The notes: generated by a model not told the origin, from the sequence alone. 17,537 nt of DNA from Deinococcales bacterium (GCA_043778225.1 JAYWGM010000078.1:1-17537), one strand, 5' to 3'. Positions 165 through 17,537 are shown, counted from the first letter of the stretch. Numbers and translations are program-made.

Positions 165-485
165 ATGGGACCTAAAATTCGTATCAAATTGCGTGGCTTT
201 GACCACCGCTCGTTGGACTCGAGCGCCGCGAAAATCGTGGATGCCGTTAAGCGCTCTGGCGCAGATGTGGCTGGACCAATTCCACTTCCAACCCGTATTC
301 GTCGTTTTACGGTGATTCGCGGACCGTTCAAGCACAAAGACAGCCGCGAACACTTCGAGCTTCGTACCCACAATCGTTTGGTAGACATTACCAACCCAAC
401 CAAAAAAACCATCGAAAGTTTAAGCACCTTGGATCTTCCAAGTGGTGTTGAAATCGAAGTTAAAACGGTAGGAGGTGCTGCATGA
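165..485 (+). CDS. rpsJ: 30S ribosomal protein S10
   Basis: [34 protein letters not shown] motifs; GGAG at 156-159 supports ATG 165. Confidence 0.98.
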
Positions 486-1105
486 AAGGCATCCTCGGCA
501 CAAAAGTCGGTATGACCCAAGTCTGGAAAAATGACAAGGTGATTCCAGTGACAGTCGTGCTGGCGGGACCCTGCCCAGTGGTGCAGCGTAAAACCCCAGC
601 AAACGATGGTTACAGTGCAGTTCAAATTGGTTTTGGTGAATCACCAAAGAAGGCTCTGAGTAAACCAGAACTTGGTCATCTCGAGAAAGCAAAATCTGCC
701 CCAATGCGCCACTTGCGCGAATTCCGTGATTACGCCCCAGAAGCCGACACCATCACTGCCGAGATTTTTACGGCTGGCGAAAAAGTAGATGTGGTTGGAA
801 CTTCTAAAGGTCGCGGTTTTACTGGTGTGATGAAGCGCTGGAATTTCCAAGGTGGTCCTGCTTCGCACGGTGCGAAGAAATGGCATCGCCGTGGTGGTTC
901 GATTGGCGCTCGTAAAACCCCAGGTCGGGTTATTAAAGGTAAAAAAATGCCAGGTCATTATGGTGTCGAACGCACCACCACCCAGAATCTCGAGGTCGTT
1001 GAGGTTCGTGCTTCGGAAAATCTGCTTTTAATTAAAGGCGCAATTCCGGGTGCAAATGGTGGTCTTGTGATGATTAAGCAAGCCAGAAAGGGAGGAGGGA
1101 AATAA
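482..1105 (+). CDS. rplC: 50S ribosomal protein L3
   Basis: [43 protein letters not shown] overlap with rpsJ. Confidence 0.98.
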
Positions 1106-2250
1106 TGCCGAGCATTAGCGTTATCGGAAACAATCCGGGTAGTCTCGAGTTGACTCTCCCGACTGCCAAGACCCATGTCTTGTACGAAGTCGTCAATTGG
1201 CAACTCGCCAAGCGTCGCCGTGGTACTGCCAGTACCCAAACTCGCGCCGAAGTCAGTCGTACAGGCAAGAAGCTCTACAGCCAAAAAGGAACTGGTAATG
1301 CCCGTCACGGCGACCGTTCTGCCCCAATTTATGTTGGTGGTGGTGCAGCTTTTGGTCCTAAGCCACGCAATTACGATTACACCTTGCCTAAAAAAGTGCG
1401 TAAGTTGGGCTTAGCGATGGCGGTCTCGAGCCGTGTGTCCGAAGGTAAAGTTTTAGCCGTAGATGGATTTAGCCTCGATGGCAAAACTAAGGGCTTTTTG
1501 GCATGGGCAAAAGAACACGGTATGGACGGTTCAGAACGTGTGTTCTTAGTCACCGACGACCTCATGGCAATTCGTGCGGCTAAGAATCTGCACTGGGTCA
1601 CGGCGGTTAAGGCGGCTGGCTTAAATTGCTACGATGTTTTACGCCACGAACAATTGGTTGCTGATAAAGCAGTTCTTTTGGCAGTTGGTACAAGCCTGAA
1701 CTTCAAAGCTGAGCAACTTCAGAAAGCCGAAGCTCGAGCAGCAGCCTTAAAAGCTGATAATGAAGCCATCGCCCTAAAAGCCAATCCAATGCCAGTGCCA
1801 CAAGCTCGAGCTTCAAAAGGTCCAAAAGGTACTTTGGCAAAAGCAACCTTGGCGGCAAGTAGCAAGGCTGATGTTGTCGCAAAACCAGCTAAAGCTGCCA
1901 AACCAGCTAAAGTTGCGATAGAAGATGCGGTTGTTGAAGTCGCACCAAAAGCTGCTCAGAAAGTGGCGGCTGGAGACGACTTAAAGCGCATCGAAGGCAT
2001 TGGTCCAAAAATCAATGATGCACTGTTATCGGCTGGAATCAATACCTTTGCCGAATTGGCAGCCGCAACCGAAGACAGCCTTAAAGCTGCCCTCGAGACG
2101 GCTGGTATGCGTTCGCACCCAAGCATGGGTACATGGGCAGAACAATCTGGTTACTTGGCGCGTGGTGATGAAGCAGGATTTGTGACCTTAACTGAGAAAT
2201 TGGTGGCAGGACGCGCCGTGCCTACTGAAGACAAAGAAGGTGACGCATGA
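1105..2250 (+). CDS. rplD: 50S ribosomal protein L4 with long C-terminal extension (Ala/Lys/Pro linker plus HhH domain)
   Basis: RRRGTASTQTRAEV, QKGTGNARHG, GGGAAFGPKPR in the first ~190 aa; ORF runs on to 381 aa and includes DDLKRIEGIGPK; SD GGAGG; stop overlaps rplW start. Confidence 0.96.
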   Translation: MPSISVIGNNPGSLELTLPTAKTHVLYEVVNWQLAKRRRGTASTQTRAEVSRTGKKLYSQKGTGNARHGDRSAPIYVGGGAAFGPKPRNYDYTLPKKVRKLGLAMAVSSRVSEGKVLAVDGFSLDGKTKGFLAWAKEHGMDGSERVFLVTDDLMAIRAAKNLHWVTAVKAAGLNCYDVLRHEQLVADKAVLLAVGTSLNFKAEQLQKAEARAAALKADNEAIALKANPMPVPQARASKGPKGTLAKATLAASSKADVVAKPAKAAKPAKVAIEDAVVEVAPKAAQKVAAGDDLKRIEGIGPKINDALLSAGINTFAELAAATEDSLKAALETAGMRSHPSMGTWAEQSGYLARGDEAGFVTLTEKLVAGRAVPTEDKEGDA

Positions 2251-2537
2251 ACTCGGTTTATGACGTACTGCTCGAGCCAGTCTCGAGTGAAAAAGCCTAT
2301 GCTGGAATGGCGGACGGCAAGTACAGCTTTTGGGTTCACCCACAAGCCAATAAGACACTCGTTAAAAACGCGGTGCAAAAAGCATTTGGCGTTAAAGTCG
2401 TTGCTGTGAACGTGCAGAATGTGCGCGGTACACATAAGCGCGTCGGTCGTTTCGCTGGTTTAACTGCTGCCCGCCGTAAGGCAATTGTGCAGTTAGCCGA
2501 TGGACAAAAGATCGAAGCGCTCGAGGGGGCAAGCTAA
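2247..2537 (+). CDS. rplW: 50S ribosomal protein L23
   Basis: [38 protein letters not shown]. Confidence 0.97.
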
Positions 2538-2538
2538 A

Positions 2539-3375
2539 ATGCCAACCAAAGAATATCGTCCGTATACCCCGAGCCGTCGTTACATCACGACCCTCGACTT
2601 TTCTGACCTGACCAAAAAGCGTCCAGAGAAGTCCCTGACTGCGCCACTGCCTAAAACCGGTGGTCGTAGCAACACTGGTCGCACCACCAGCCGTTTTATC
2701 GGTGGTGGACACAAGCGCTTGTACCGCATTATCGATTTTAAGCGCCGCGACAAGGGTGGCGTGCCAGCCAAAGTGGCTGCCATCGAATACGATCCAAATC
2801 GTTCGGCAAACATTGCCCTGCTGCATTACCTCGATGGCGAGAAGCGTTATATCCTTGCGCCAGATGGTGTTGAAGTCGGTAGCCGTATTGTTAGTGGACC
2901 AGAAGCTGAACCTCGAGTCGGCAATGCCATGCCGCTTCGTTTTATCCCAGTTGGTACAGTCGTTCACAGCATCGAATTGGTGCCTGGACGTGGTGCAAAA
3001 ATGGCTCGTAGTGCTGGAACTAGCGCTCAAGTCCAAGGTAAAGAAGGCGACTATGTGGTGCTTCGTTTGCCATCGGGCGAGTTGCGTCGGGTTCACACCG
3101 AGTGTTACGCCACGGTTGGCGTGGTAGGCAATGCCGACCATAAAAACGTGGTTATTGGTAAGGCAGGTCGTCAGCGTTGGATGGGCAACAAGCCACATCA
3201 ACGCGGCAGTTCAATGAACCCTGTTGACCACCCACACGGTGGTGGTGAAGGTCGCGCCCCTACAGGTCGTGTCCCAGTCTCGCCTTGGGGTAAAATTGCA
3301 AAAGGTGGCAAGACACGTAAAAAGCGTAACACCTCGAGTGATTTCATCATTTCTCGTCGTAAGAACTCGAGATAA
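2539..3375 (+). CDS. rplB: 50S ribosomal protein L2
   Basis: [43 protein letters not shown] 2539 just after the rplW stop. Confidence 0.98.
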
Positions 3376-3379
3376 AGGA

Positions 3380-3437
3380 CAGGTCGGGTCGGTGCGCTTG
3401 TGCCGATACCCCCTGATCTGCGCTGGCTATAACCAGC
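3380..3437 (+). promoter_or_regulatory. Structured rplB-rpsS spacer containing a 16S helix-21-like (S8-binding-site-like) hairpin
   Basis: CAGGTC(3380-85)/GATCTG(3415-20) base stem; GGTCG-GTGC-GCTT-GTGC-CGATACC (3387-3410); small hairpin GCTGG/CCAGC (3422-3437) just before the SD AAGGAG. Confidence 0.55.
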
Positions 3438-3450
3438 AAGGAGTTAAATA

Positions 3451-3738
3451 ATGCCAAGGAGTGCCAAAAAAGGTCCATTTGTGGATCTCCACCTGCTCGA
3501 CAAAGTAGATGCTGCCAGCGCTAAAAACGATAAGCGCGTCATCAAAACTTGGTCGCGCCGCAGTACCATTGTTCCTGAAATGATTGGTTTAACGTTGGCT
3601 GTGCATAACGGTAAGCAACACGTCCCAGTTTATGTTTCAGAGAACATGGTCGGTCATAAGCTCGGCGAATTCTCGCCAACTCGTATCTTTAAGGGTCACA
3701 GTGGTGGCAAAGATGCTAAAGCCACAGGTAAGAAATAA
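3451..3738 (+). CDS. rpsS: 30S ribosomal protein S19
   Basis: [31 protein letters not shown]. Confidence 0.98.
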
Positions 3739-4112
3739 TGGAAGCCTTCGCTTTAGCTAAATTTGTCCGTATCACCCCACGCAAAATGCGTTTGGTGATT
3801 GACCTGATTCGTGGCAAAACCGTCAAGGATGCAGAAGACCTCTTGAAATTTATTCCAAAGGGTGCAACCACACCAATTGCTAAAGTCTTAAAGAGCGCCA
3901 AAGCCAACGCTACCAACAACTTCGATATGCTCGAGGATCAGTTGTACATCAAGAGTGCTTTTGTCAACGAAGGTCCGACCCTGAAACGGATTATTCCTCG
4001 GGCTCGTGGTCGTGGTGATGGTTTATTAAAACGCACCAGTCATGTGACGATTATTCTCGAGGAAATGCCAGAAGGTAAAACCCGAAACAGCGGTAAAGGT
4101 GGGAAGCGATAA
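3738..4112 (+). CDS. rplV: 50S ribosomal protein L22
   Basis: VRITPRKMRLVIDLIRGK, VNEGPTLKR, PRARGR, KRTSHVTI. Confidence 0.98.
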   Translation: MEAFALAKFVRITPRKMRLVIDLIRGKTVKDAEDLLKFIPKGATTPIAKVLKSAKANATNNFDMLEDQLYIKSAFVNEGPTLKRIIPRARGRGDGLLKRTSHVTIILEEMPEGKTRNSGKGGKR

Positions 4113-4897
4113 TGGGTAATAAAATCAATCCACTCGGTCTACGCATCGGGATTAACAAAGACCACTTGTCCAAATGGTTTGCGACCAAAAAAGATTACGC
4201 CAAATTGATTGTCGAAGACAGCAAAATCCGTAAGATGGTCAATAAAGAATTGAACAATGCTGGTGTGGCAACAATCAACATTGAACGGGCGGCTCATCAA
4301 GTCAATGTCACCGTCAAGGCTGCCAAGCCCGGTGTTGTTATTGGTAAGGATGGCTCAAATATCAAGAAATTGCGCGATACATTAACTGCCGTAGTTGGTC
4401 ATACCAGCACTGTGGCTGTCAATGTCGAAGAAGTCGGCAACCCAAACACCAGCGCTCCGTTAATCGCGCAACGCATTGCCGAACAAATCGAACGCCGTTT
4501 TGCTTACAAGCGTGCCATGCAGCAAGCGATTCAAAAAGTGATGGAATCTGGTGCAAAGGGCTGTAAAATCGTGGTTTCGGGTCGTCTTGGTGGCGCAGAG
4601 CAAGGTCGCAAAGAAACCCGCATGGAAGGTCGCGTACCACTTCATACCCTGCGTGCCGACATTGATTATGGTTTTGCCGAAGCCTTAACCACCTATGGCA
4701 AGCTCGGTATCAAAGTGATTGTCTTTAATGGCGAAGTGATTGGTAAGCAAGATGGCACACGCCTCGCCCCACGCCCAATGGCTCGAGGCGGCGCAGATGG
4801 TGCAAAAAGCGGCGGCGATGACCGCCGTGGTGGCGCTGGTGCAAACCGCACCCGTCCGGGCGCTCGCGCTCGTCGTCCAGAGAAGGGAGGCGCGTAA
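4112..4897 (+). CDS. rpsC: 30S ribosomal protein S3
   Basis: [35 protein letters not shown]; Gly/Arg-rich C-terminal tail. Confidence 0.98.
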
Positions 4898-5322
4898 TGT
4901 TACTTCCAAAACGCATGAAGTTCCGTAAGCAAATGAAGGGTCGTATGCGCGGCTCAACCAAAGGCGGCGATTACATCGCCTTCGGAGATTTTGGTCTGGT
5001 GGCACTAGAAGCCGCTTGGATTCGTTCCAACCACATCGAAGCCTGCCGTATCAGCATGAGTCGCTATTTTCGCCGTGGTGGTAAAATCTATATTCGTATC
5101 TTCCCAGATAAGCCAATCACCAAAAAGCCTGCCGAAACCCGCATGGGTAGCGGTAAAGGCGCGGTCGAATACTGGGTGGCTGTGGTCAAACCGGGTCGTG
5201 TGATGTTTGAAGTCGAAGGCGTGACCGAAGAACAAGCCCGCGAAGCCTTTCGTTTAGCTGGACACAAACTCCCAATTAAAACGAAGTTTGTCACAAGGGA
5301 GGTCTACGATGAAGCGCAATGA
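4897..5322 (+). CDS. rplP: 50S ribosomal protein L16
   Basis: [42 protein letters not shown]. Confidence 0.98.
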
Positions 5323-5533
5323 GTCCCTAAAAGCCTTCCGCGAGATGAACGTCGTTAATCTCGATAAAGAAGTTGCAACTCGTAAAGAAGAACTGATGAA
5401 ACTCCGCTTCCAAAAAGTGGTCAGTACCGTCCAGAATACCTCGAGACTAAGTCTTCTTCGCAAAGAAATCGCGCAACTCTTGACCATCGCTACCGAAAAA
5501 CGCGGCGAAGGTCTTGCAAAGAAGGTGAAGTAA
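5309..5533 (+). CDS. rpmC: 50S ribosomal protein L29
   Basis: [10 protein letters not shown]...[10 protein letters not shown]; position between rplP and rpsQ; SD GGGAGG before ATG 5309. Confidence 0.93.
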
Positions 5534-5782
5534 ATGGCGGTTAAAACATTTATTGGTACAGTGGTGTCCGACAAAGCCAACAAGACCATTTCGGTCAAGG
5601 TCGAACGCAAGTTCACCCATCCCTTGTATGGCAAAGTGGTGACCCGCTCGAAGAAATATGCGACACACGATGAAAACAACGAATACAAAGCAGGCGACAT
5701 CGTTGAAATCATTGCTGTGCGCCCAATCAGCAAGACCAAAACGTGGAAAGTCAATCGTTTGGTCGAGTCGAAAAAGGACTAG
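5534..5782 (+). CDS. rpsQ: 30S ribosomal protein S17
   Basis: [34 protein letters not shown]. Confidence 0.98.
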
Positions 5783-5784
5783 TC

Positions 5785-6168
5785 ATGATTCAATCCTTTA
5801 CAGAATTAGATGTTGCCGACAATACTGGCGCAAAGAAAGTAATGTGCTTTCGCGTCATGGGTGGATTGTCTCGCGGTAGCGGCAACCAAAAGTACGCTGG
5901 CGTAGGCGATGTCATTATTGCCAGCGTTAAAGAATGCGCTCCTCGCGGTACGGTTAAAAAAGGTGATGTTGTCAAATGCGTGGTCGTCCGAACCAGCAAG
6001 GTCGTTAAACGCGCCGATGGCAGTGCCATTCGCTTTGACCGCAATGCTGCCGTGATTATCAACAAAGAAGGCGAACCTCGAGGTACACGTGTTTTCGGAC
6101 CGATTGCTCGAGAACTTCGTGACCGTAAGTTCATGAAGATTGTTTCGCTCGCTCCGGAGGTGTTGTAA
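5785..6168 (+). CDS. rplN: 50S ribosomal protein L14
   Basis: [42 protein letters not shown]; short Gly-rich loop insertion. Confidence 0.98.
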
Positions 6169-6482
6169 TGCACGTTAAGAGTGGCGACACCGTTAAAGTG
6201 CTGCGCGGCAAAGACCGTGGCACAATTGCAAAAGTCTTAAAAGTTTTGCCAAAAGAAGAGACTGTCTTGGTTGAAGGTGTCAATATCGTCACCAAAGCAG
6301 TTAAACCATCCGAAACCAACCGCACTGGTGGTTTCACCAAGTTTGAATCGCCAATCCATGCTTCTAAAGTCATGGTTGTGGATTCAGAAGGTAAAGCCAC
6401 CCGCATCGGTATGAAAGAAATCAACGGTAAGAAGGTGCGCGTCTCCAAGAAGAGCGGCGTAACCATCGAAGAGAGTAGGTGA
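6168..6482 (+). CDS. rplX: 50S ribosomal protein L24
   Basis: [17 protein letters not shown] (KOW), [16 protein letters not shown]. Confidence 0.97.
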
Positions 6483-6487
6483 GTTAT

Positions 6488-7033
6488 ATGGCAATGGAGC
6501 GATTAAAAATCACCTACCAAACGACAGTCCGCGAGGACATGATGAAGCGCTTTGGTTACACCAGCCCAATGGCAGTCCCAGCCCTTGTCAAAGTCGTGGT
6601 CAATCAAGGCATCGGTGAAGCCAAGGACGACAGCAAATTGCTCGAGAAAGCCCAAAAAGACATGGCAACAATCACGCTGCAAAAGCCAATTGTCACCAAG
6701 TCCAAGAAAAGCGTCTCGAACTTTAAGCTCCGTGCTGGTCAAAGCGTTGGTCTTAAAGTCACCTTGCGTGGCGAAAAAATGTACACCTTCCTCGAGAAAC
6801 TCTTGAATGTCGCCTTACCGCGTATTCGTGATTTCCGTGGAGTCAACCCAAACAGCTTTGATGGTCGTGGTAACTACAACTTGGGTATCAAAGAACAAAT
6901 GGTTTTCCCAGAAATTACCTACGAAATGGTAGATGCAACCCGTGGATTTGACATCACGGTCGTGACCACTGCCAAGAATGATGAAGAAGGTCGGGCGTTA
7001 CTCGAGGGACTCGGATTCCCATTTAAGAAATAA
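6488..7033 (+). CDS. rplE: 50S ribosomal protein L5
   Basis: [40 protein letters not shown]; start at ATG 6488 (6494 is an alternative). Confidence 0.97.
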
Positions 7034-7039
7034 ATTCTT

Positions 7040-7065
7040 GTAGGGCGAGGCACACCTCGCCCTAC
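7040..7065. repeat. GTAG-type REP-like palindrome
   Basis: Perfect 11-bp inverted repeat GTAGGGCGAGG-CACA-CCTCGCCCTAC starting with GTAG on both strands; no U-tract. Confidence 0.6.
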
Positions 7066-7077
7066 GATAGGAGACCT

Positions 7078-7347
7078 ATGGCAATTCAATCAAAGAAAGC
7101 TCGTCAAAAACAACGCGAAGTGCTGGTTAAGAAATTCGCCGCCAAACGTGCCGCCATGAAAGCTGCTGGCGATTATGTTGGTCTGCAAAGCATTCCACGT
7201 AATGCCAGCCCAGTTCGTCTTCGCAATCGCTGCTCGGAAACTGGTCGTCCACGTGGTTACGTTGGCTTTTTTGGTCTGAGCCGTATTGTGCTGCGCGAAA
7301 AAGCCCACGCTGGCGAATTGCCCGGCGTGACCAAATCCAGCCGCTAA
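7078..7347 (+). CDS. rpsN: 30S ribosomal protein S14, 89-aa zinc-free (C-) type
   Basis: [45 protein letters not shown]; only one Cys; SD AGGAG. Confidence 0.96.
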
Positions 7348-7596
7348 CGTCATCGAAACGTGATAAAGGGTCAAAAGCCTTTTTTCTGCAAGCTAATTTG
7401 CTGTACGCTCCACTGCTTGGGTCAAACCAAGTTTTATTTAACTTGAGAAGTTCGTGCTAGGGGTTCAAGCCTAGTAGCAGAGTCTTGAGTCGGTGCGGGG
7501 ATGGTCGAATGAGTTCATCCGATACCACCCGCGAAGCTAGAAAACGGTTTAAGCTCGGACAACGGGTCGAAAAACCGATTAACAGGAGAAGCAAAA
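7348..7596 (+). promoter_or_regulatory. 249-nt structured leader upstream of rpsH with a 16S helix-21-like hairpin
   Basis: Several hairpins by inspection; GCGGG(7495-99)/CCCGC(7528-32) encloses GGTCG-AATG-AGTT-CATC-CGATACC (7503-7526); SD AGGAG before rpsH. Confidence 0.6.
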
Positions 7597-7995
7597 ATGC
7601 TTTCAGATCCAATTGCAGATATGCTCACCCGCATCCGAAACGCGGTGCGTGGGTACAAGGAAACGGTAGATATTCCCGCTTCTAAGTTCAAAGAGCGGAT
7701 TGCCCATATCCTCGAAAAAGAGGGTTACGTTAAAGGTGTAGAGCGTGTCAAACTCGAGACTGGTTTTGAAATAATTCGTGTAGGCTTAAAATACGGCGCA
7801 AAACGCGAACCCGTCATTAAAAGTATTACTCGCATTAGCCGTCCCGGTCGTCGGGCTTACGTGACTTCGGATAATCTGCCAAAGATTCACGCAGGTTTAG
7901 GCATGAGCATTGTCAGCACCTCCAAGGGACTGATGGTTGACCGCGATGCACGCAAAAGTGGCATCGGTGGCGAAGTAATCTGCGAGGTGTGGTAA
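7597..7995 (+). CDS. rpsH: 30S ribosomal protein S8
   Basis: [42 protein letters not shown]. Confidence 0.98.
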
Positions 7996-8552
7996 TGAGC
8001 CGCATCGGTCGTCAACCCATTGCCCTACCTAAGGGCGTAACCGTCAATATCGGTGCTGGTTTAGTCAAGGTTAAGGGTGCAAAAGGCGAGCTTCACGTGC
8101 CAGTCAACGCCGAAATCTTAATTCAAGAAGAAGCTGGTAACATCAACGTTACCCGTCCATCGGACAGCCGCACTCATCGTGCCATGCACGGTTTAACCCG
8201 TACTTTGGTGGCTAATGCAATTCAGGGTGTCAGTGCTGGTTTTCAAAAGAACCTCGAGCTACATGGCGTGGGCTTTCGCGCCAAGCTCAATGGTAAGGTT
8301 CTCGAGTTAGCCATTGGTTACAGTCACCCAGTGATTATCGAACCACCAGAGGGCATCAGCTTTGTTTTGCCAGACCAAACCAAGATTCAGATTCATGGCA
8401 TTGACAAGCAGTTGGTTGGACAAGTCACCGCTAATATCCGCAAAGTCCGTAAGCCCGATGCCTACCACGGTAAAGGCGTGCGCTTTGAGGGTGAACAACT
8501 GACCCTCAAACCCGGTAAGTCAGCCGCCGGTGGTAAGGGAGGTAAGAAATGA
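7995..8552 (+). CDS. rplF: 50S ribosomal protein L6
   Basis: [37 protein letters not shown]. Confidence 0.98.
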
Positions 8553-8890
8553 GTTTAACTGCCAAAACGCGCCGTACATTTCGTACCCGCAACAAAATCA
8601 AAGCGGTCTCGAGTCGCCCACGTTTAAGCGTGTTCCGCAGCGACAAGCATATTTACGCCCAAATTATAGACGATGTGGCTGGAGCTACTTTAGCCGCCGC
8701 CTCGAGTGTCGCGCTTGAAACCAAGTCTGGTAACAAAACCGAAGTTGCTAAAGCCGTCGGGGTAGCAATTGCCCAAGCTGCTTTAAGCGCCAACATTAAA
8801 GCCGTAGTATTTGATCGTGGTTCGTACCAATACCACGGTCGTGTGAAAGCGCTCGCGGATGCGGCGCGGGAGGGTGGTCTTGACTTCTGA
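8549..8890 (+). CDS. rplR: 50S ribosomal protein L18
   Basis: [48 protein letters not shown]. Confidence 0.98.
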
Positions 8891-9467: not shown

Positions 9468-9631
9468 ATGTTATTTTGCGCCGTAGCCTGATTAAACTGA
9501 CCAAGCCGCAATTGGCAGCCGCTAAAGCCCTTGGCTTACGCAAAATTGGTCAATCCGTTAGCGTCCAAGACAACCCTGCGGCTCGTGGGCAAGTCGAAGC
9601 GATTAAATTTATTCTCGAGATACAGCCGTAA
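9464..9631 (+). CDS. rpmD: 50S ribosomal protein L30 (55 aa, absent from the ORF track)
   Basis: Manual translation from GTG 9464: [61 protein letters not shown] and DNPA.RG motifs; SD AAGGAG; lies between rpsE and rplO. Confidence 0.93.
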
Positions 9632-9637
9632 GTTTTT

Positions 9638-9666
9638 GAGCCTTGGGTATTTGCATCCCAAGGCTC
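9638..9666. other. Hairpin in the rpmD-rplO spacer
   Basis: Perfect 10-bp stem GAGCCTTGGG/CCCAAGGCTC with a 9-nt loop, extendable by G-U pairs. Confidence 0.6.
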
Positions 9667-9692
9667 GAGACTGACTGCTCCAGAGGTTTGCA

Positions 9693-10160
9693 ATGAAACT
9701 CAATGAACTTAAACCAAATCCAGGAGCGCGTCACCGCAAAAAGCGGGTTGGACGTGGACCTGGCGGAACGGACAAAACCGCCGGACGCGGACATAAAGGT
9801 CAGCAATCGCGTTCTGGTTCGAGCTTGCCCTCAAGCGGTTCGTACAAAGCCGAAGGTGGTCAAACACCAATGATTCGACGTTTGCCAAAACGCGGTTTTA
9901 ATAATCCAAACAAACAACAATTTCACATTGTCAATTTGTCGGATTTAAGCGTTTTTGCGGCTAATGAAGTTGTTAATGGCGAAAGTCTGGTTGCTAAGCG
10001 CTTAATCAAAAAGATTCATCATCCAATTAAGTTACTTGCTTTTGGCGAACTTAACCTAGCCTTGACCATTGTTGTGGATAATGCCAGTGCAACAGCCATC
10101 GAAAAGGTCAAAAGCGCCGGTGGCAGTATTACCGTTACTAATGCCGCCGAGGGCGCGTGA
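9693..10160 (+). CDS. rplO: 50S ribosomal protein L15
   Basis: KRVGRGPGGTDKTAGRGHKGQ, EGGQTPMIRRLPKRGF. Confidence 0.97.
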   Translation: MKLNELKPNPGARHRKKRVGRGPGGTDKTAGRGHKGQQSRSGSSLPSSGSYKAEGGQTPMIRRLPKRGFNNPNKQQFHIVNLSDLSVFAANEVVNGESLVAKRLIKKIHHPIKLLAFGELNLALTIVVDNASATAIEKVKSAGGSITVTNAAEGA

Positions 10161-10183
10161 ACCTCGAGAAATCACGAAGCCAA

Positions 10184-10211
10184 AATGCCGCATCCTTAGG
10201 GTTGCGGCATT
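10184..10211. other. Hairpin in the rplO-secY spacer
   Basis: AATGCCGCA/TGCGGCATT 9-bp perfect stem, followed by TATACT (possible -10; no clear -35). Confidence 0.5.
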
Positions 10212-10243
10212 GTATACTTATGTGGATTTCTAAAGGATAAACT

Positions 10244-11572
10244 ATGTGGCGCGCATTCTTAGATGCTTTTAAAATTCCAGAGTTACGAATGAAAATCCTG
10301 TTCACCTTGGGTGCTTTGGCGGTCTACCGACTTGGTGCAGCCATTCCAACCCCGGGCGTAGATGCAAGTAGCCTTAGCAATAACATTCAAGGTGGCAACC
10401 TTGGTGGGGTGCTGGGCATTCTTGGTTTGGTCAGTGGTGGCAGTCTCGAGCAATTTTCGTTGTTTGCCCTTGGTGTGTTGCCCTACATTACCGCCAGCAT
10501 CGTGATGCAAATCATGACCACGGCGATTCCAGCCCTCGAGAAAATGCAGAAAGAAGGACCAGAAGGCTCGAAGCGGATTAACCAATATACCCGTACAGCA
10601 GCGATTGGTCTAGCCGCAGTGCAGGCGTTTTTCTTTGCCAATCTGTTGCAAAGCCAAGGTACGTTCGTGCGTATTGGTTGGAATCCAGCTGTCTTTATGT
10701 TTGTCTTGGTGATTACCCAAATGGCAGGTTGTGCTTTTACAATGTGGTTGGGTGAGCGCATTACCGAATATGGCATTGGCAACGGTATTTCAATGATTAT
10801 TTTTGCTGGTATTGTCCAAGGCTTTCCGACCCAGTTTCAGCAAACTTTTGCTTTGTTGGGAACACAATTTGACTTATTGGCTGTGATTTTTTTCTTTGCG
10901 ATGATTGTCTTGGTGATTGGCATTATTGTCTGGGTACAGCAAGGGGAGCGGCGAATACCTGTCCAATATGCCCGTAAAATTTCGGCTCGAGCCGGTGGGG
11001 CTGCCTCGAGTGCTGCCAATGCCAGTTTTATCCCTCTGAAAATCAATACGGCTGGTGTGATACCTGTTATTTTTGCCAGTTCGATATTACAATTGATTCA
11101 ACTGATTCCAACCAGTCTACCAAATGCACCATGGGCGCAAACAGTGGCGGACTTTTTGAATGTTCGCAGTGCCAGTGGATTACTGATTGAAGTGCTGCTG
11201 ATTATTGGTTTTACTTACTTTTACACCAGCATTACCTTCGACCCAAAACGGGTTGCCGAAAACTTGCGTGAACAAGGTGGTTTTGTACCCGGAGTTCGCC
11301 CCGGTACAGACACACAATTGCATCTCGAGCGTATTTCGGGGCGAATTACCCTTTGGGGTGCGTTGTTTCTTGGCGCGTTAGCCGTTATTCCAACCGTTGT
11401 ACAAAACATTACCAATGTCAGCACCTTCCCGTTGGCGGGGACAACCCTACTGATTGTGGTCGGTGTGGCGCTTGACACCTTAAAACAACTCGAGTCTCAA
11501 CTTGCGATTCGCAATTATGGTGGCTTTCTACAAAAAGGTAAGCTGCGCGGACGCGGTGGCTTTCAACAATAG
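10244..11572 (+). CDS. secY: Preprotein translocase subunit SecY
   Basis: FSLFALGVLPYITASIVMQ, WLGERITEYGIGNGISMIIFAGI, GGFVPGVRPG, LLIVVGVALDT; many hydrophobic segments. Confidence 0.98.
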   Translation: MWRAFLDAFKIPELRMKILFTLGALAVYRLGAAIPTPGVDASSLSNNIQGGNLGGVLGILGLVSGGSLEQFSLFALGVLPYITASIVMQIMTTAIPALEKMQKEGPEGSKRINQYTRTAAIGLAAVQAFFFANLLQSQGTFVRIGWNPAVFMFVLVITQMAGCAFTMWLGERITEYGIGNGISMIIFAGIVQGFPTQFQQTFALLGTQFDLLAVIFFFAMIVLVIGIIVWVQQGERRIPVQYARKISARAGGAASSAANASFIPLKINTAGVIPVIFASSILQLIQLIPTSLPNAPWAQTVADFLNVRSASGLLIEVLLIIGFTYFYTSITFDPKRVAENLREQGGFVPGVRPGTDTQLHLERISGRITLWGALFLGALAVIPTVVQNITNVSTFPLAGTTLLIVVGVALDTLKQLESQLAIRNYGGFLQKGKLRGRGGFQQ

Positions 11573-11581
11573 CGGCTTTTG

Positions 11582-11619
11582 GTTTCTCGAGTTTGCTAGG
11601 CTCGAGAAACTATTTTTTT
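11582..11619 (+). terminator. Probable intrinsic terminator after secY
   Basis: GTTTCTCGAG(11582-91)/CTCGAGAAAC(11601-10) stem followed by TATTTTTTT. Confidence 0.65.
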
Positions 11620-11631
11620 GATGGAGAATCC

Positions 11632-12192
11632 ATGCACAAAGTCATTATTTTCTTAGGACCTCCCGGCGCAGGCAAAGGCACACAAGCCAAACGCCTTGCA
11701 TCTGAACTCGAGTTGGTGCAGTTATCTACCGGCGAAATGCTGCGTGACCATATGGCTCGAGGCACTGAGTTGGGAATGCAAATCAAAGAGATTCAAAATT
11801 CAGGGCGACTTGTTTCTAACGAAATTGTGGTGGCGTTAATCCGCGATAAATTGTCGGCAATGGAGCGCATCCGCGTGATATTCGATGGTTTCCCACGCAC
11901 CATCGCTCAAGCCCAAGCGCTTGATGTGCTGCTTGAGGAACTGAGTGCGCCAATCTCGAGCGTGCCATTGTTTGAAGTCCCCGAAGACGTGCTGCGGCAA
12001 CGAATTTTAGACCGTGCCGATAAGGAAAAACGTGCCGATGACACCCCAGTGGTGATTCAAAAGCGGATGCAGGTCTACCAAGATGAAACTTCTCCACTGA
12101 TTGATTACTACGAACCACGCGGTAATCTCAAGCGTATCAATGCGCTCGGCGAGCCAGACGAAGTGTATGCCAGACTTAAAGCAGTTATTTAA
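11632..12192 (+). CDS. adk: Adenylate kinase (short LID type)
   Basis: P-loop GPPGAGKGTQA, LSTGEMLR, FDGFPRT, RADD; SD GGAG before ATG 11632. Confidence 0.97.
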   Translation: MHKVIIFLGPPGAGKGTQAKRLASELELVQLSTGEMLRDHMARGTELGMQIKEIQNSGRLVSNEIVVALIRDKLSAMERIRVIFDGFPRTIAQAQALDVLLEELSAPISSVPLFEVPEDVLRQRILDRADKEKRADDTPVVIQKRMQVYQDETSPLIDYYEPRGNLKRINALGEPDEVYARLKAVI

Positions 12193-12195
12193 CCT

Positions 12196-12975
12196 ATGTC
12201 CATTATCTATAAACGCCAAAACGAACTCGAAATGATGGCAGCCGCCGGAGAAATCCTTTACAAAGTCCATGACCTTGTAGAACGGGCTGTTGCCGAGGGT
12301 GTGACCACCAAGCACCTTAATGATGTGGCGGAAAATGCGATTCTCGAGTTTGGCGCTCGACCAGCCTTTCTTGGCTATAATGGCTTTCCAGCCACGATTA
12401 ACTCGAGCATCAATGATGTCATTGTGCATGGCATTCCAAGCACCCAAAAACTCCGCAATGGCGACATTATCAGCGTGGATATTGGATTACACTACAAAGG
12501 CTGGGTGGCAGACAGCGCCCGTTCGTATGGTGTGGGCAGCATCTCGCCAATGGCAAAAAAATTGCTCGAGGTCACAGATGCGGCACTCTGGGCGGGTATC
12601 AAAGCCGCACAAGCGGGTCAACGTTTAGGCGATGTTTCGTGGGCAGTGCAAAAAACGGTTGAAGCCGCAGGATTTTCGGTGGTGCGTGAATTTGTTGGAC
12701 ACGGCGTTGGACGTAAAATGCACGAAGAGCCACAAGTTCCTAATTGGGGACAAGCCGGCAAGGGACCTGTCCTCAAACCCGGTATGACCTTTGCACTCGA
12801 GCCGATGGTGACAGTTGGACGCACTGATGTGGTTGTACTCGAGGATAAATGGACAGCCAAAACCAAGGATGGAAGCCTAAGCGCCCAAATTGAACACACG
12901 ATTGCAATTACCGACCGCGGACCTCGGGTGCTGACCTTACCCAAAGGTGTGGCGTGGGGACCGGTGCATAAATAG
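12196..12975 (+). CDS. map: Type I methionine aminopeptidase
   Basis: VHGIP, GDIISVDIG, ADSARS, GHGVGRKMHEEPQV, FALEPM, EHTIAIT. Confidence 0.97.
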   Translation: MSIIYKRQNELEMMAAAGEILYKVHDLVERAVAEGVTTKHLNDVAENAILEFGARPAFLGYNGFPATINSSINDVIVHGIPSTQKLRNGDIISVDIGLHYKGWVADSARSYGVGSISPMAKKLLEVTDAALWAGIKAAQAGQRLGDVSWAVQKTVEAAGFSVVREFVGHGVGRKMHEEPQVPNWGQAGKGPVLKPGMTFALEPMVTVGRTDVVVLEDKWTAKTKDGSLSAQIEHTIAITDRGPRVLTLPKGVAWGPVHK

Positions 12976-13102
12976 TATTATACGGGACATACACGCCCAT
13001 GTTTATCTGGCATAATTGTTAAGCTAGATTTGATACCCGTTAAGGCGGGAAATAAGCCCCCCGTAACGGCGGGGAAAAACCAACCCGCACGACGGAGGAT
13101 AA

Positions 13103-13384
13103 ATGGCAGGAAGAAACCGCAGCTCTAAACCCGGCGCATCCCGCGAAGCCAAAGACGCAAAACGCCAAGAAAAAGCCGAGGATGTGATACGCACCGAAGG
13201 CGTGGTACTCGAGGCATTACCAAACACCACTTTTATGATTAAACTCGACTCTGGTCACGAATTACTTAGTTACGTTTCGGGCAAGATGCGAATGAATTAT
13301 ATCCGAATTCTGCCCGGTGACCGTGTGGTTCTCGAGATTTCAAAATACGATCCAAGCAAGGGTCGAATTGTGTACCGCAAATAA
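13103..13384 (+). CDS. infA: Translation initiation factor IF-1 (N-terminally extended)
   Basis: [44 protein letters not shown] before ATG 13103. Confidence 0.97.
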
Positions 13385-13519
13385 AGAATTCTTTTTTCTC
13401 GAGCAATAATTCTCGAGCTTGTATTATCCCCAAATTAGTCCAAATAGACAGTGCTGTACGACTGTCGAGCGCTGCTAAGGTTTCAAAACCAAACAAACGG
13501 CGGCGCGAGGAGGAAAATC

Positions 13520-13633
13520 GTGAAAGTCAGGGCAAGTGTTAAGAAAATGTGCGATAACTGCAAAGTTGTTCGCCGTCACGGCGTGGTTTTTGTCATCTGC
13601 AAAGACCCCAATCATAAGCAGAGGCAGGGTTAA
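13520..13633 (+). CDS. rpmJ: 50S ribosomal protein L36 (zinc-ribbon type)
   Basis: From GTG 13520: [45 protein letters not shown]. Confidence 0.97.
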
Positions 13634-13635
13634 GC

Positions 13636-14016
13636 ATGGCGCGTATTAGTGGTGTGGATTTACCACGCGAAAAGCGTGTCGAAATTGCTTTGACCTATAT
13701 TTTTGGCATCGGTTTGACCCGTAGCCAAGAAGTGCTGGCAGCCACAGGTATCAACCCAGATACTCGAGTCAAAGCACTGACCGAAGCTGAACAAACCAAA
13801 TTGCGCGATTTTGTTGAGAAAAACTTCAAAATTGAAGGCGATTTGCGTTCAGAGATTGGTCAGAACATCAAGCGACTGATGGACATTGGCAGTTACCGTG
13901 GCTTACGTCACCGTAAATCTTTGCCTGTTCGTGGTCAACGCAGCAAAACCAACGCTCGTACCCGCAAAGGTCCTCGTAAGACCGTTGCTGGTAAGAAGAA
14001 AGCCGCGAGGAAGTAA
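13636..14016 (+). CDS. rpsM: 30S ribosomal protein S13
   Basis: [42 protein letters not shown]. Confidence 0.98.
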
Positions 14017-14018
14017 TC

Positions 14019-14411
14019 ATGGCTAAACCTGTTAAAGGAAAGGCTCCAAAAGCCAAACGCCGCAATATACCAAGTGGCAAAGCGTACATTAATGCTTCGT
14101 ACAACAATACCATTGTCACGATTGCAGATAGCGCAGGCAACCCAGTTGCTTGGAGTAGCGGCGGTACAATTGGCTACAAAGGCAGCAAAAAAGGTACGCC
14201 TTACGCCGCGCAACTTGCAGCTGCCGACGCTGCCAAGAAAGCCCAAGGCATGGGCATGACCATAGTGGACGTGGTTGTGCGTGGCACAGGCTCTGGGCGT
14301 GAACAAGCAATTCGTGCCATTCAAGCCAGTGGCTTGGATGTCCGTTCGATCATGGATGATACCCCGGTACCGCACAACGGTTGCCGTGCGCGTAAGAAGA
14401 TGAGGTTGTAA
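14019..14411 (+). CDS. rpsK: 30S ribosomal protein S11
   Basis: [35 protein letters not shown]. Confidence 0.98.
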
Positions 14412-15028
14412 TGGCTCGTTATACAGGACCCGCAATTAAATTATGCCGCCGTGAAGGAGTCAATTTATTTGATTCTGATAAGGTCGCAAAATACCTCGCT
14501 CGGCGTGAATACGCCCCAGGTCAACACGGTCAACGCCGCAAGGGTCGCCCAAGCGATTTTAGTGTGCGTTTGCGCGAAAAGCAAAAGCTGATTCGTATCT
14601 ATGGAATGTCCGAAAAGCCATTTCGTAATTTATTCGGCGAAGCTGCTAACCGCGTCGGTGTGACCGGTACAATTTTTATTCAGTTGCTCGAGAGCCGCTT
14701 GGATAATGTCGTTTACCGTATGGGAATCGCGACCACTCGCCGTCAATCACGTCAGTTTGTTGGGCATGACCACATCCGAGTCAATGGTAAGCGCGTGACC
14801 ATTCCAAGTTACCGCGTTAAACCGGGCGATGCGATTACCGTTAAAGAAAGCAGCAAGTCCTTAACTTTCTTTAAGGAAAACGCCGAAGCCAGTAAGCGCC
14901 GTCGCACTCCAAATTGGGTTTCGTTTGATGCTGATAAACTCGAAGGTAAATTTGATCGTTTGCCGGCACGAGAAGATGTTGTAATTCCAGTCAATGAGCA
15001 GTTTGTAGTCGAGTACTACAGCCGATAA
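14411..15028 (+). CDS. rpsD: 30S ribosomal protein S4 (no four-Cys zinc motif)
   Basis: [37 protein letters not shown]; a single Cys. Confidence 0.98.
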
Positions 15029-15124
15029 TCCGCCCTCTCATAACCCAATGATTCTCGAGGTGCAAGCCCCGCGCACCGAACTCTTACCCTTACTTCGTTC
15101 CTCGAGAAATCACATGGAGGCACT

Positions 15125-16114
15125 GTGGAATTTAAGCCCCGCCTCACCGCAAAAACCACCGATAACTATGGCGAATTCGTCCTCGAGCCACTGCAACGTG
15201 GCTATGGTGTAACCATTGGCAACCCTCTGCGCCGTATTTTGCTCTCGAGCATTCCGGGTACAGCCGTCACCAGTGTTTATATCGAGGATGTGCTGCACGA
15301 GTTCAGTACCATCAATGGTGTGACCGAAGATGTGATTCACATTATTTTGAACCTTAAACAATTGGTTGTAAAATTTCACGCTGGTGGACCAAAAACCCTT
15401 TCGATTCGTGCCGAAGGTCCAAGACAAATTTTTGCCAAGGATTTAGATGTGCCATCTGATGCTGAAATTGTCAACCCAGAACAGTACATCTGCACCCTTG
15501 GCAAAGGTGGCAAGTTGGTTATGGAAATCCGTGTTGAAGAAGGTGTTGGCTATGTGCCGTCTGAGCGCCACAACACCAAAGACCGTATCAACTCCATGCC
15601 CGTAGATGCGGTCTATACGCCAGTCTCTCGAGTTGCTTACCACGTTGAAGATACCCGCGTCGGTCAACAAACAGACCTTGACCGTCTGATTCTACGCATC
15701 TGGACCGATGGCAGCATCACCCCAGACAGTGCGCTCGAGCAATCGGTCAATCTGCTTCGCGCTCAGTTGGATTTGTTCTCGAGTGCTGAGAAATTGGCAG
15801 CCCCTGTTGCTCCAGTTCGCCCAGTGATGGAAATTCCAAAAGCGGTGATTCAATCCGAGCCACCAGCCCCACGTGAAAAACTGGTCATCAAACCCGTTAT
15901 CGAAGCCACTGGAAACGACAATGGCATGACCTTAGAGGGCTTAGGTTTAACCACCCGCACGCTTCACAGCCTCAAAGAAGAAGGCGTGGACAGTGTGGCA
16001 GCCCTGACCAGTTTGTCCGAAAAAGACTTGAAGAAAGTCCCCGGTATTGGCGAACGAAGCCTTGACGAAATCAAGAAGCAGCTTGCCATGAGCGGACTCG
16101 AGCTTAAACCATAA
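15125..16114 (+). CDS. rpoA: RNA polymerase alpha subunit
   Basis: LEPLQRGYGVTIGNPLRRILLSSIPG, VLHEFSTI, TRVGQQTDLDRL; CTD with PGIGERSLDEI; GTG start after GGAGG. Confidence 0.98.
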   Translation: MEFKPRLTAKTTDNYGEFVLEPLQRGYGVTIGNPLRRILLSSIPGTAVTSVYIEDVLHEFSTINGVTEDVIHIILNLKQLVVKFHAGGPKTLSIRAEGPRQIFAKDLDVPSDAEIVNPEQYICTLGKGGKLVMEIRVEEGVGYVPSERHNTKDRINSMPVDAVYTPVSRVAYHVEDTRVGQQTDLDRLILRIWTDGSITPDSALEQSVNLLRAQLDLFSSAEKLAAPVAPVRPVMEIPKAVIQSEPPAPREKLVIKPVIEATGNDNGMTLEGLGLTTRTLHSLKEEGVDSVAALTSLSEKDLKKVPGIGERSLDEIKKQLAMSGLELKP

Positions 16115-16193
16115 GACTCCCCAACGTGCCTAAAAGCGCGACCATTCACCCTCTGCCACACAAACGGCAACCCAAGAGGACAGGAGCAACACC

Positions 16194-16565
16194 ATGAGAC
16201 ACCTTGTAGCAGGACGACGTTTAGGACGTTCCTCGAGTCACCGTCGTGCATTAAGCACCGCCCAAGCCACCGCCCTTTTTCGCCACGGACGCATCGAGAC
16301 AACCTTAGCCAAAGCCAAGGAACTGCGCCCATACGTCGAAAGCCTGATTACCACGGCTAAAGGCGGCAGCTTGCACAACCGCCGTATTGTTGGCGCGGAC
16401 ATCAAAGACAAAGCGGTTCTCAAAAAGCTCTTTGAAGAAATTGCACCATTGTTTGCCAACCGTCCCGGTGGATACACCCGTATCCTCAAGACTGGCACAC
16501 GCCGAGGCGACAATGCGCCATTGGCACTGATTGAACTGGTGACATACGAAATTCCAGCAGTCTAA
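16194..16565 (+). CDS. rplQ: 50S ribosomal protein L17
   Basis: [43 protein letters not shown]. Confidence 0.98.
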
Positions 16566-16577
16566 AGAAATAAAATT

Positions 16578-16615
16578 AACGAGTCTCGAGATAATTGCCT
16601 CGAGACTCGTTTTTT
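16578..16615 (+). terminator. Intrinsic terminator ending the alpha operon (possibly bidirectional)
   Basis: 13-bp perfect stem AACGAGTCTCGAG/CTCGAGACTCGTT, 8-nt loop, T-run downstream and A-rich upstream; lies between convergent genes. Confidence 0.85.
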
Positions 16616-16657
16616 GGTTATTCTGGAATAGAACAACCAGAAATGTAGATACGCTCC

Positions 16658-17074
16658 TTACAAATCCAGTACATCAACCTCAAGTGTCCAAAAGTCAGCA
16701 TCAAACGTAAAAACTTGGCTGCTTAGGCGTTGGCTCATTGCACTAACAATGGCATCTGTCAACGTAATTTTCTGCCCCATGTGTTGCGGCAACTTGTCCA
16801 GAGCTAAACCTAAATCCTCTGGTATGGGGTACTCCACTGGAAAAGCAGTGGTTAAACGCAGTAATTCCCCTGATGCTTTACCCGGCAAGAACGGTTTTCG
16901 GTATAACCTCAGCCTGTGAAACTCGAGTAGACAAGGTAATGGTATCCGAATCTCAGCCCGAATTTTAGCAAGGTACGCAAATCCTGCTTTGGCTCGATCG
17001 TATTCGCTGTCGGATTTATCGCTTAGGCTGTATAGAGGGCTTGTGTCGAGCAAAACAAGCCTATGCTGATTCAT
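16658..17074 (-). CDS. PIN-domain protein, VapC-like toxin
   Basis: VLLDTS near the N-terminus, LLE, ITLTDA and VFTFDADF give the four acidic PIN positions; 138 aa; overlaps the upstream small gene. Confidence 0.88.
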   Translation of the reverse strand: MNQHRLVLLDTSPLYSLSDKSDSEYDRAKAGFAYLAKIRAEIRIPLPCLLEFHRLRLYRKPFLPGKASGELLRLTTAFPVEYPIPEDLGLALDKLPQHMGQKITLTDAIVSAMSQRLSSQVFTFDADFWTLEVDVLDL

Positions 17075-17309
17075 GCTCGAGTTGAGTTAGGTAATGGTCG
17101 TGATTGAGTGCCATGTTGGTAATGCTGCCATCGGTTGGATTTTCGGCAAACATTTCAGCAATATCTTTCCAGTGGTGGGCGTTGCCTTGTGGGCGTGCAA
17201 AGAAAGACTCAAGACTTGCCTCAATGACTGCACTTTCAGTGGGAAACGAACCTTTTTGCACAGATTCCCGAATTAACTGCTCGAGTTTTGGGTTAAGGTC
17301 TAGCACCAT
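17061..17309 (-). CDS. Putative antitoxin (VapB-like, possible ribbon-helix-helix N-terminus)
   Basis: MVLDLNPKLEQLIRESVQKGSFPTESAVIEASL..., C-terminal ALNHDHYL; about 82 aa; overlaps the PIN gene start by 14 nt; start chosen at ATG 17309. Confidence 0.72.
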   Translation of the reverse strand: MVLDLNPKLEQLIRESVQKGSFPTESAVIEASLESFFARPQGNAHHWKDIAEMFAENPTDGSITNMALNHDHYLTQLEHESA

Positions 17310-17315
17310 GCGGAC

Positions 17316-17321
17316 AGTATA
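17316..17321 (-). promoter_or_regulatory. -10 box TATACT for a probably leaderless antitoxin-toxin mRNA
   Basis: Minus strand reads TATACT-GTCCGC-ATG; no SD upstream of the ATG. Confidence 0.55.
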
Positions 17322-17537
17322 CATCAAGTTCTTAAACCGCAGTTTTAACGTGTTTTGCCAAATGGATTGCAATCAGGGCTTTTGGCTGGACTCGAGTAGC
17401 AGCATTATAGAAATTTGGAATGTTTGTCACGCAAGCCTAATACCAAGTTAAGCTAATCAGTCTCGTATGATTCATCTCAATGAGAATATATTTGCTTGAC
17501 TGACGCATTCGTAAAATTCATGAAAGATTTTTAAGTG

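Follow-up and report, generated by a model that had tools for sequence, protein, structure and literature searches.

The hexamer CTCGAG is a family-wide highly iterated palindrome in Deinococcales, outside cyanobacteria

Why should one six-base palindrome occur 70 times within a single ribosomal-protein locus? The question was raised by a stretch of 17,537 nucleotides from a Deinococcales bacterium (GCA_043778225.1 JAYWGM010000078.1:1-17537, hereafter the window, taken as a whole), which comprises the S10-spc-alpha ribosomal-protein operon with secY and displayed no match to Rfam families. A first-pass annotation, made from the sequence alone, had reported about 70 copies of CTCGAG, far above chance, in all three reading frames and with at least 11 of them intergenic, and these observations proved accurate. 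The window contained exactly 70 copies (spanning positions 218-17396; sites are given without strand), against a mean of 2.46 (sd 1.53, maximum 7) in dinucleotide-preserving shuffles, and 0 of 200 shuffles reached 70. According to our own open reading frame (ORF) annotation, 31 copies were in frame 0 (CTC-GAG, Leu-Glu), 12 in frame 1 (xCT-CGA-Gxx) and 16 in frame 2 (xxC-TCG-AGx), the remaining 11 being intergenic or unassigned. The word also brings CGA codons, as had been remarked, into genes that mostly use CGT (171) and CGC (150) for arginine: 12 of their 36 CGA codons were inside CTCGAG. Likewise, 29 of the 37 Leu-Glu pairs encoded in the window were spelled CTCGAG. The enrichment is not local, since the contig of the window (C78) was the one with the lowest density among the 107 contigs of its genome (3.99 per kb versus a median of 6.27). 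All or part of the window was also present in five sequencing runs, in each case as contigs.

Highly iterated palindromes (HIPs) are, to our knowledge, a three-decade puzzle described only from cyanobacteria. The term is used here in the sense given in the available portions of Elhai 2015 (PMC4390886) and Xu et al. 2018 (PMC5861425), i.e. a short palindrome whose abundance across the genome is raised 15- to 300-fold. The HIP literature compared consisted of Elhai 2015, Xu, Lawrence and Durand 2018, Kamoku and Nielsen 2024 and Rodriguez-Cruz et al. 2026, each as partial text. No published report of CTCGAG as a highly iterated palindrome was found in a search that left subscription journals and supplements outside. 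Our results showed that CTCGAG is a real, family-wide HIP outside cyanobacteria. The likeness to the cyanobacterial HIP1, proposed from the window alone, was borne out by an excess that is genome- and family-wide, present in all frames and in spacers and resistant to a synonymous shuffle, and by sites that are conserved above controls and scarce in rRNA and foreign-looking DNA.

The genome of the window (G000; 4.03 Mb in 107 contigs, GC 0.487, 89% complete) contained 24,877 copies of CTCGAG, one per 162 bp, corresponding to an observed-to-expected ratio (O/E) of 26.7 on base composition. It was the commonest hexamer of the genome and the next commonest ones overlapped it. Under Markov models of order 1, 2, 3 and 4, O/E was 47.5, 15.1, 3.6 and 1.16, respectively, the last value being circular, as CTCGAG itself accounts for 89% of the CTCGA and 46% of the CTC in the genome. 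Flanking positions carried at most 0.033 bit each over +/-10 nt, so the unit is the bare hexamer. On the same grounds, a repetitive extragenic palindromic (REP) sequence, a miniature inverted-repeat transposable element (MITE) or another longer repeat element was ruled out. Distances between neighbouring sites followed a near-exponential distribution (mean 160.6, median 117) on which a 3-base ripple was superimposed, and the numbers of sites in 5-kb windows were over-dispersed (mean 31.0, sd 6.8). Sites never followed each other at a spacing of 6; such pairs would create GAGCTC, a word that is nearly absent (24 copies). The 18 neighbours that differ from CTCGAG at one base (one-off variants) occurred at a median of 0.87 times expectation, and the transition neighbours CTTGAG and TTCGAG reached O/E values of 1.40 and 1.37; the depletion of one-mismatch variants envisaged in the first-pass annotation did not materialize.

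Other palindromes of the genome presented a different picture. CGATCG was found in 182 copies (O/E 0.20). Several further GC-containing 6-bp palindromes were near-absent from the 4 Mb (GGCGCC 3 copies, GGGCCC 1, AGGCCT 1, GACGTC 1, CTGCAG 13, and GAGCTC as above), and the other NTCGAN palindromes were also rare (TTCGAA 34, GTCGAC 49, ATCGAT 224). The near-absence of most GC-containing 6-bp palindromes agrees with long-standing exposure to numerous restriction systems and with the presence of about 20 methyltransferase genes.

The excess operates at the level of DNA rather than at that of coding. In G000, 3,381 ORFs of at least 100 aa, picked by codon-usage score, covered 87.5% of the genome, and CTCGAG density was 6.17 per kb in coding and 6.12 per kb in non-coding DNA. 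Coding DNA contained 21,811 copies, whereas shuffling of synonymous codons within genes left 2,308 +/- 43, a 9.4-fold difference; the two ways in which the first-pass annotation thought the excess might dissolve, by codon correction or as a property of a single locus, were thus both checked and the excess persisted. Frames 0, 1 and 2 accounted for 12,976, 4,353 and 4,482 of the coding sites. Density was flat across gene starts and stops, except for dips at the start region and at the stop codon. Pairs of sites sometimes build hairpins, and no favoured pair spacing was evident in the non-coding DNA of G000.

The spread of the word was followed in 151 genomes of the order Deinococcales, representing families f1 (an uncultured family; 19 genomes, five genera, including G000), f2 (37), f3 (36) and f4 plus f5 (59), most relatives being fragmented metagenome bins. 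All 19 genomes of f1 displayed 4.3-6.8 CTCGAG per kb, versus at most 3.4 per kb in the 132 genomes of the four other families: about 0.25-2.6 per kb in f2, about 0.01-0.27 per kb in f3 (37-1,193 sites per genome) and about 0.6-3.4 per kb in f4 and f5, whose genomes are small and high in GC and in which CTC and GAG are common codons. In ribosomal operons of f1 relatives, density stayed at 3.2-4.6 per kb whatever their GC content (0.476-0.593). Baselines were computed for one genome each of f1, f2 and f3 from samples of 320-400 kb. G006 (f1) displayed 6.07 sites per kb, an O/E of 31, 10.0 times the synonymous shuffle and 5.78 sites per kb in non-coding DNA. The corresponding values for G013 (f2) were 1.62 per kb, 5.3, 1.83 times and 1.89 per kb. 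In G014 (f3), 8 sites were counted in 320 kb versus 49 from the synonymous shuffle (ratio 0.16, O/E 0.1), with none in non-coding DNA. The sister family f3 therefore avoids CTCGAG; a search of two f3 genomes revealed no nuclease of the XhoI family. Several other f2 genera displayed 2.1-2.6 CTCGAG per kb together with few GAGCTC. The mild enrichment of f2 may be an intermediate or a parallel state of that in f1. Viral contigs with three sites within 70 bp were also considered: among the at least 126 loci listed, most were high-GC or repeat-rich and none was clearly like f1.

CTCGAG is rarest in rRNA, tRNA and ribosomal-protein genes and in recently imported DNA, in agreement with the scarcity in rRNA and mobile DNA that had been anticipated. 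In the complete f1 genome G151, the 23S rRNA gene contained 1 site in 2,933 nt and the 5S gene none, as compared with 18 in 3,000 nt of flanks. The 68 tRNAs of G000 contained 6 sites versus 32.6 expected. Only 3 of the 749 5-kb windows of G000 displayed 8 sites or fewer, and their GC content was 0.34-0.42; a low-GC restriction-modification islet of the same genome held 3 sites in 3.7 kb. The 23S-5S-tRNA unit of G151 (L240, G151:C1:714879-720811) was closely bracketed by sites, with three in the 100 nt preceding the 23S gene, a single one separating 23S from 5S, another immediately following 5S, and the tRNA flanked by one on either side. The 6.4 kb upstream of this 23S gene contained no 16S gene, and a scan of G000 with four short conserved rRNA motifs gave no match. 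Contig C19 of G000 (9937-14171) displayed 26 tRNA genes for nearly all amino acids on one strand within 4.3 kb; four of the six tRNA-internal sites are located there.

Conservation was assessed by the test of Xu et al. 2018 on 215 kb aligned between G000 and G006 (74.7% identity). CTCGAG reached a Jaccard index of 0.478 in coding and 0.521 in non-coding DNA, as compared with 0.119 and 0.139, respectively, for 179 control hexamers of the same composition, and with 0.065 and 0.108 for one-off variants. One-off variants are thus unusually short-lived. Per-base identity was 0.86-0.89 inside sites versus 0.72 in the 15-nt flanks, which indicates that losses of CTCGAG are slower than changes in neutral-looking sequence. 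Among the 1,414 aligned sites of G000, 914 were common to G006, 470 differed by substitution and 30 faced gaps; given this small number of gaps, sites are not footprints of 6-bp insertions, a possibility that was therefore ruled out. Single-substitution differences were mostly C/T (48 and 39 at C1, 48 and 45 at C3, 10 and 25 for T2 to C). Since C1 and C3 differ equally often, there is no single methyl-C hotspot.

Individual positions were less stable than the word itself. Over 9,466 shared operon columns from six f1 taxa, 58 positions displayed CTCGAG in one or more of them, and all six taxa shared it at only 3; 12 were confined to the genus of the window, 15 to the other clade and 17 to a single taxon, and 6 were missing from one taxon. 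In our reading, positions turn over between genera and it is density, rather than particular sites, that is held. Similarly, 873 Leu-Glu dipeptides were conserved between G000 and G006, of which 650 and 634, respectively, were spelled CTCGAG; both genomes used the word at 515, versus 472 expected if independent. The excess identity at conserved Leu-Glu (0.20) was within the range of ten control dipeptides (0.06-0.22).

The word has also left its mark on proteins. Leu-Glu was the most over-represented of the 400 dipeptides of G000 (18,749 versus 8,115 expected, O/E 2.31), while the reverse dipeptide Glu-Leu occurred 7,829 times and Ser-Ser reached an O/E of 1.58. Leu-Glu was comparably enriched in G006 (O/E 2.34), and two sister families, in whose proteins Leu and Glu are about as abundant, displayed values of 1.16 and 0.91. 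Leu-Glu pairs of G000 encoded other than by CTCGAG and with a G-ending Leu codon were rare relative to codon usage (CTG-GAG 93 versus 1,335 expected, CTG-GAA 161 versus 2,219, TTG-GAA 281 versus 2,676); the transition neighbour CTT-GAG was near expectation (980 versus 1,030).

Does a methyltransferase accompany the word, as in cyanobacteria? The first-pass annotation had suggested methylation-coupled biased repair, with a conserved orphan methyltransferase and a partner nuclease distributed together with the enrichment. Five Pfam families were searched across 20 relatives (12 from f1, in bins 57-94% complete, and 8 from outgroups), complemented by one protein query and by 18 loci retrieved for comparison, the specificity of such enzymes being unreadable from sequence. 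G000 itself encodes about 20 DNA methyltransferases, including an Eco57I/TaqI_C-type enzyme of 650 aa. None of the classes C5, N6_N4, D12, N6_Mtase/Eco57I and TaqI_C was present in all 12 f1 relatives, as far as these incomplete bins go: C5 enzymes were not found in G002 and G010, D12 not in G006, G008 and G010, N6_N4, N6_Mtase and Eco57I not in G002, and TaqI_C was recorded in 3 of the 12. Orthologs were likewise patchy. The 650-aa enzyme was matched only in G001 and G003 (68% identity) and a 308-aa N6_N4 enzyme in three relatives only. G006, G010 and G011 each encode one N6_N4 enzyme; these three were mutually 25-31% identical, the G006 type being without ortholog in G000. A PDB search with the 650-aa enzyme returned only generic gamma-class matches (best E 2.7e-9) and no clue to specificity. 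Vsr (PF03852) was absent from G000. The XhoI nuclease (PF04555) was not found in G000 or in five relatives, a weak negative since the profile was silent in all 14 control genomes. Gene co-distribution in these bins leaves the methylation-coupled interpretation unsupported.

Two methyltransferase loci deserve mention in their own right. A 343-aa N6_N4 enzyme and a 275-aa partner of no recognised family were kept together in G006, G004 and G008 at 75-91% identity (L189:2650-4496, L192:1393-3242, L194:894-2799), with no ortholog in G000; they are probably a restriction-modification pair. In G000, locus L020:1453-3082 (contig C33), which neighbours a CBS-domain gene, displayed a 332-aa C5 methyltransferase and, after it, a 199-aa HNH endonuclease. 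This C5 enzyme had high-scoring matches in 6 of the 7 other genomes of genus g1 (G002 being the exception) and in no other f1 genus.

What, then, keeps the word so abundant? We lean, if only modestly, towards a weak, genome-wide and word-specific fixation bias that acts on DNA itself and holds CTCGAG at 4-7 per kb across f1. A sequence one base away from CTCGAG would be short-lived and the complete word would be lost more slowly than its flanks change, with the consequence that, at equilibrium, CTCGAG would be about 30 times commoner than its neighbours. From this equilibrium argument, a scaled fixation bias of about ln(26.7/0.87) = 3.4 can be estimated. The word would settle wherever it is tolerated: at synonymous sites first, then through conservative amino-acid changes (extra Leu-Glu and Ser-Ser), in spacers and in hairpin stems. 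The source of the bias would most likely be a process coupled to recombination or repair, e.g. biased gene conversion, or preferential uptake of, or replacement by, word-rich DNA, and a protein that recognises the palindrome in dimeric form may direct it. Apparently, the bias can do without a conserved cognate methyltransferase.

Three other forces and one trivial origin were weighed against this fixation bias. That the word is a mere by-product of composition, of codon or amino-acid usage, of a dispersed repeat or of insertion footprints has a negligible probability: although the maximal-order Markov expectation nearly equals the count, and although CTC and GAG are ordinary codons through which high-GC relatives reach 2-3 sites per kb, the Markov result is circular, the synonymous shuffle removes most coding copies and non-coding density equals coding density. 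Methylation-coupled biased repair, in which an orphan methyltransferase marks CTCGAG and methyl-directed or very-short-patch-like repair restores or creates the word (Elhai's model for HIP1), is a more serious candidate that we nonetheless consider unlikely. In the available text of Elhai's survey (PMC4390886), HIP1 and alternate HIPs are as a rule accompanied by a methyltransferase that targets the word or its core, such enzymes being of the m5C as well as the m4C kind, yet no CGATCG methyltransferase is recognisable in four HIP1-rich strains either, so that a patchy distribution such as the one found here is not fatal to this model. The roughly 20 methyltransferase genes of G000 also count in its favour. 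Against it stand the lack of a universal class among the 12 f1 relatives searched and the confinement of traced orthologs to few f1 genomes, the absence of Vsr from G000, the undepleted transition variants (CTTGAG and TTCGAG), which T:G repair would remove, and the equal frequency of differences at C1 and C3.

Selection on individual sites for a chromosome or nucleoid function, exerted through an abundant CTCGAG-binding protein as Xu et al. proposed for HIP1, would account for the fourfold better conservation of sites relative to control motifs, inside and outside coding DNA (the very test on which the selection case is based in the portion of Xu et al. 2018 available), and for a family-wide presence over GC 0.45-0.60. 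Yet only 3 of 58 operon positions are shared by all six taxa, exponential spacing together with over-dispersed 5-kb counts indicates no regular array, one-off variants are less conserved than controls, contrary to HIP1* in what is available of Xu et al., and no candidate binding protein is known; site-level selection is in our opinion distinctly unlikely. Least probable among the three forces is a Chi-like signal, by which CTCGAG would stop a nuclease of the AddAB/RecBCD type, start recombination and protect own DNA after breakage, an idea to which we attach very little weight. Short over-represented words that mark self DNA are a hallmark of Chi, but the known Chi words are asymmetric and only few-fold enriched. 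Furthermore, a search for AddAB-type PD-(D/E)XK nucleases (PDDEXK_1) was negative for G000 and for 5 of the 12 f1 relatives, yet positive for outgroups of f2, f4 and f5, which lack the enrichment. A Chi-like effect was suggested for HIP1 in transformation, according to the part of Kamoku and Nielsen 2024 available (bioRxiv 10.1101/2024.09.10.611283).

Several points weigh against the fixation bias favoured here as well. Its mechanistic core is one that we infer, with no candidate reader protein, and conversion bias and weak selection are indistinguishable from the present data. Retention above flanks is taken in the available text of Xu et al. 2018 (PMC5861425) as a sign of selection rather than of neutral replenishment. 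ComEC was intact in 13 of 13 f1 genomes, making DNA uptake possible, but also in 8 of 8 outgroup genomes searched; it is therefore uninformative and does not co-vary with the enrichment, and AddAB-like nucleases were not detected in G000 and several relatives, as described above. At conserved Leu-Glu, the state of G006 depends on that of G000 (515 of 650, 0.79, versus 119 of 223, 0.53), which means that some positional persistence exists. The effect on Leu-Glu is weak in constrained operon proteins, where 22 shared ribosomal-operon proteins held 27-32 such pairs in f1 versus 19-38 in outgroups, so that the proteome claim rests on genome-scale figures. Finally, genes were called crudely, by codon-usage score among ORFs of 100 aa or more, and incompleteness affects both G000, of which 89% is covered, and the metagenome bins that make up most relatives.

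A more daring version of the fixation bias is conceivable, although we would rather bet against it: CTCGAG might be a genome identity word, read by f1-specific machinery for recombination, uptake or break processing. It would then be a palindromic functional analogue of Chi or of the DNA uptake sequence (DUS), spread by molecular drive, and would represent a second, independent HIP origin with no dependence on a cognate methyltransferase.

Individual sites of the window illustrate how the word is accommodated. Among the 48 coding sites at which at least 3 of 5 Deinococcales outgroups could be aligned, compatible residues were found in most outgroups at 17, in a minority at 13 and in none at 18. 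The first site (218-223) is in frame 2 and encodes Asp-Ser-Ser, as counted and translated, and two frame-1 sites (1733-1738 and 1805-1810) encode Ala-Arg-Ala and introduce CGA arginine codons according to translation and codon counts, consistent with the Ser-Ser and Ala-Arg readings made initially. The alignment showed the site at 2912-2917 (Pro-Arg-Val) to be one of the only three common to all six f1 taxa, with other residues in 5 of 5 outgroups. The site at 3930-3935 is also present in all six taxa, at a Leu-Glu that is shared by 3 of 5 Deinococcales outgroups and replaced by Phe-Glu in 2 of 5; owing to this sharing, it is reachable largely by synonymous change. At 6077-6082, the word was found in G000 alone of the six taxa, within a Pro-Arg-Gly that is conserved in all, which is most simply interpreted from the alignment as a recent synonymous gain. 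Two secY sites were common only to G000 and its relative L002. The one at 10986-10991 accompanies a Lys/Arg difference, since other members of the genus have Ala-Lys-Ala; at the other (11005-11010), alignment displayed Ala-Ser-Ser versus Ala-Ala-Ser in L001 and L004.

Three pairs of sites were noted outside genes. One intergenic pair (9614 and 9664; 9614-9669) flanks a GC-rich hairpin after a ribosomal-protein gene, as read by eye, and the positions of another (13398-13417) are 14 bp apart. A third pair (16585 and 16599; 16585-16604), likewise read by eye, makes up the core of the stem of a hairpin; with the T-run that comes after it, and located between convergent genes, this structure looks like an intrinsic terminator. 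The last site of the window, from the count, is at 17391-17396.

With f1, a second case of a HIP is available, in an unrelated phylum, denser than the first, based on another word and with no obvious cognate methyltransferase. The contrast between f1 and cyanobacteria allows models of HIP1 to be tested, be they methyl-directed repair, chromosome structure, or an uptake or Chi-like signal, and a single order offers a natural gradient: f1 enriches the word 27-fold, another family about 5-fold, and yet another avoids it about 10-fold. If CTCGAG were indeed an identity word, comparison with cyanobacteria and with the avoiding and mildly enriching sister families could reveal the function of HIPs. 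The force involved acts on DNA and is strong enough to double the frequency of a dipeptide across the proteome. In practice, CTCGAG density flags imported DNA in f1 genomes and could aid binning.

Among known systems, HIP1 (GCGATCGC) and the alternate HIPs are the closest: like CTCGAG, they are short GC-rich palindromes, over-represented tens of times in all frames and in intergenic DNA. In the partial texts compared, HIP1 is also lineage-wide, better conserved between genomes than controls, scarce in foreign-looking DNA and unexplained as to cause. CTCGAG differs by being another word of another phylum (Deinococcota), shorter at 6 nt and with no derivation from GCGATCGC or the CGATCG core. 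Its density (about 6,200 per Mb) exceeds the 300-2,700 per Mb given for HIP1 in the part of Elhai's survey available (PMC4390886), and its one-off variants are less conserved than controls, whereas those of HIP1 are more conserved in the corresponding part of Xu et al. 2018. Moreover, no conserved extension beyond the hexamer and, among the 12 f1 relatives, no co-distributed methyltransferase were found.

The uptake signal sequences (USS) of Pasteurellaceae and the DUS of Neisseriaceae are genome-wide words that accumulate by uptake and recombination drive, in coding DNA where tolerated. They shape peptides, form inverted pairs in terminators and are rare in imported DNA. The intact ComEC of f1 adds to the likeness, although outgroups share it. 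USS and DUS are, however, 9-12 nt long, asymmetric and present about once per kb. A repair bias that enriches a methylated palindrome is known from E. coli, where Dcm/Vsr very-short-patch repair raises CCWGG and lowers CTWGG. CTCGAG departs from this system by the absence of Vsr from G000, by C5 enzymes that are not universal in f1, by undepleted T:G-derived neighbours and by a far larger effect. Restriction-modification systems of the XhoI/PaeR7I type, reportedly including the MamA system of M. smegmatis, share the recognition word itself. Restriction targets are avoided, which is the pattern seen in f3 with its 8 sites in 320 kb, whereas in f1 the same word is enriched.

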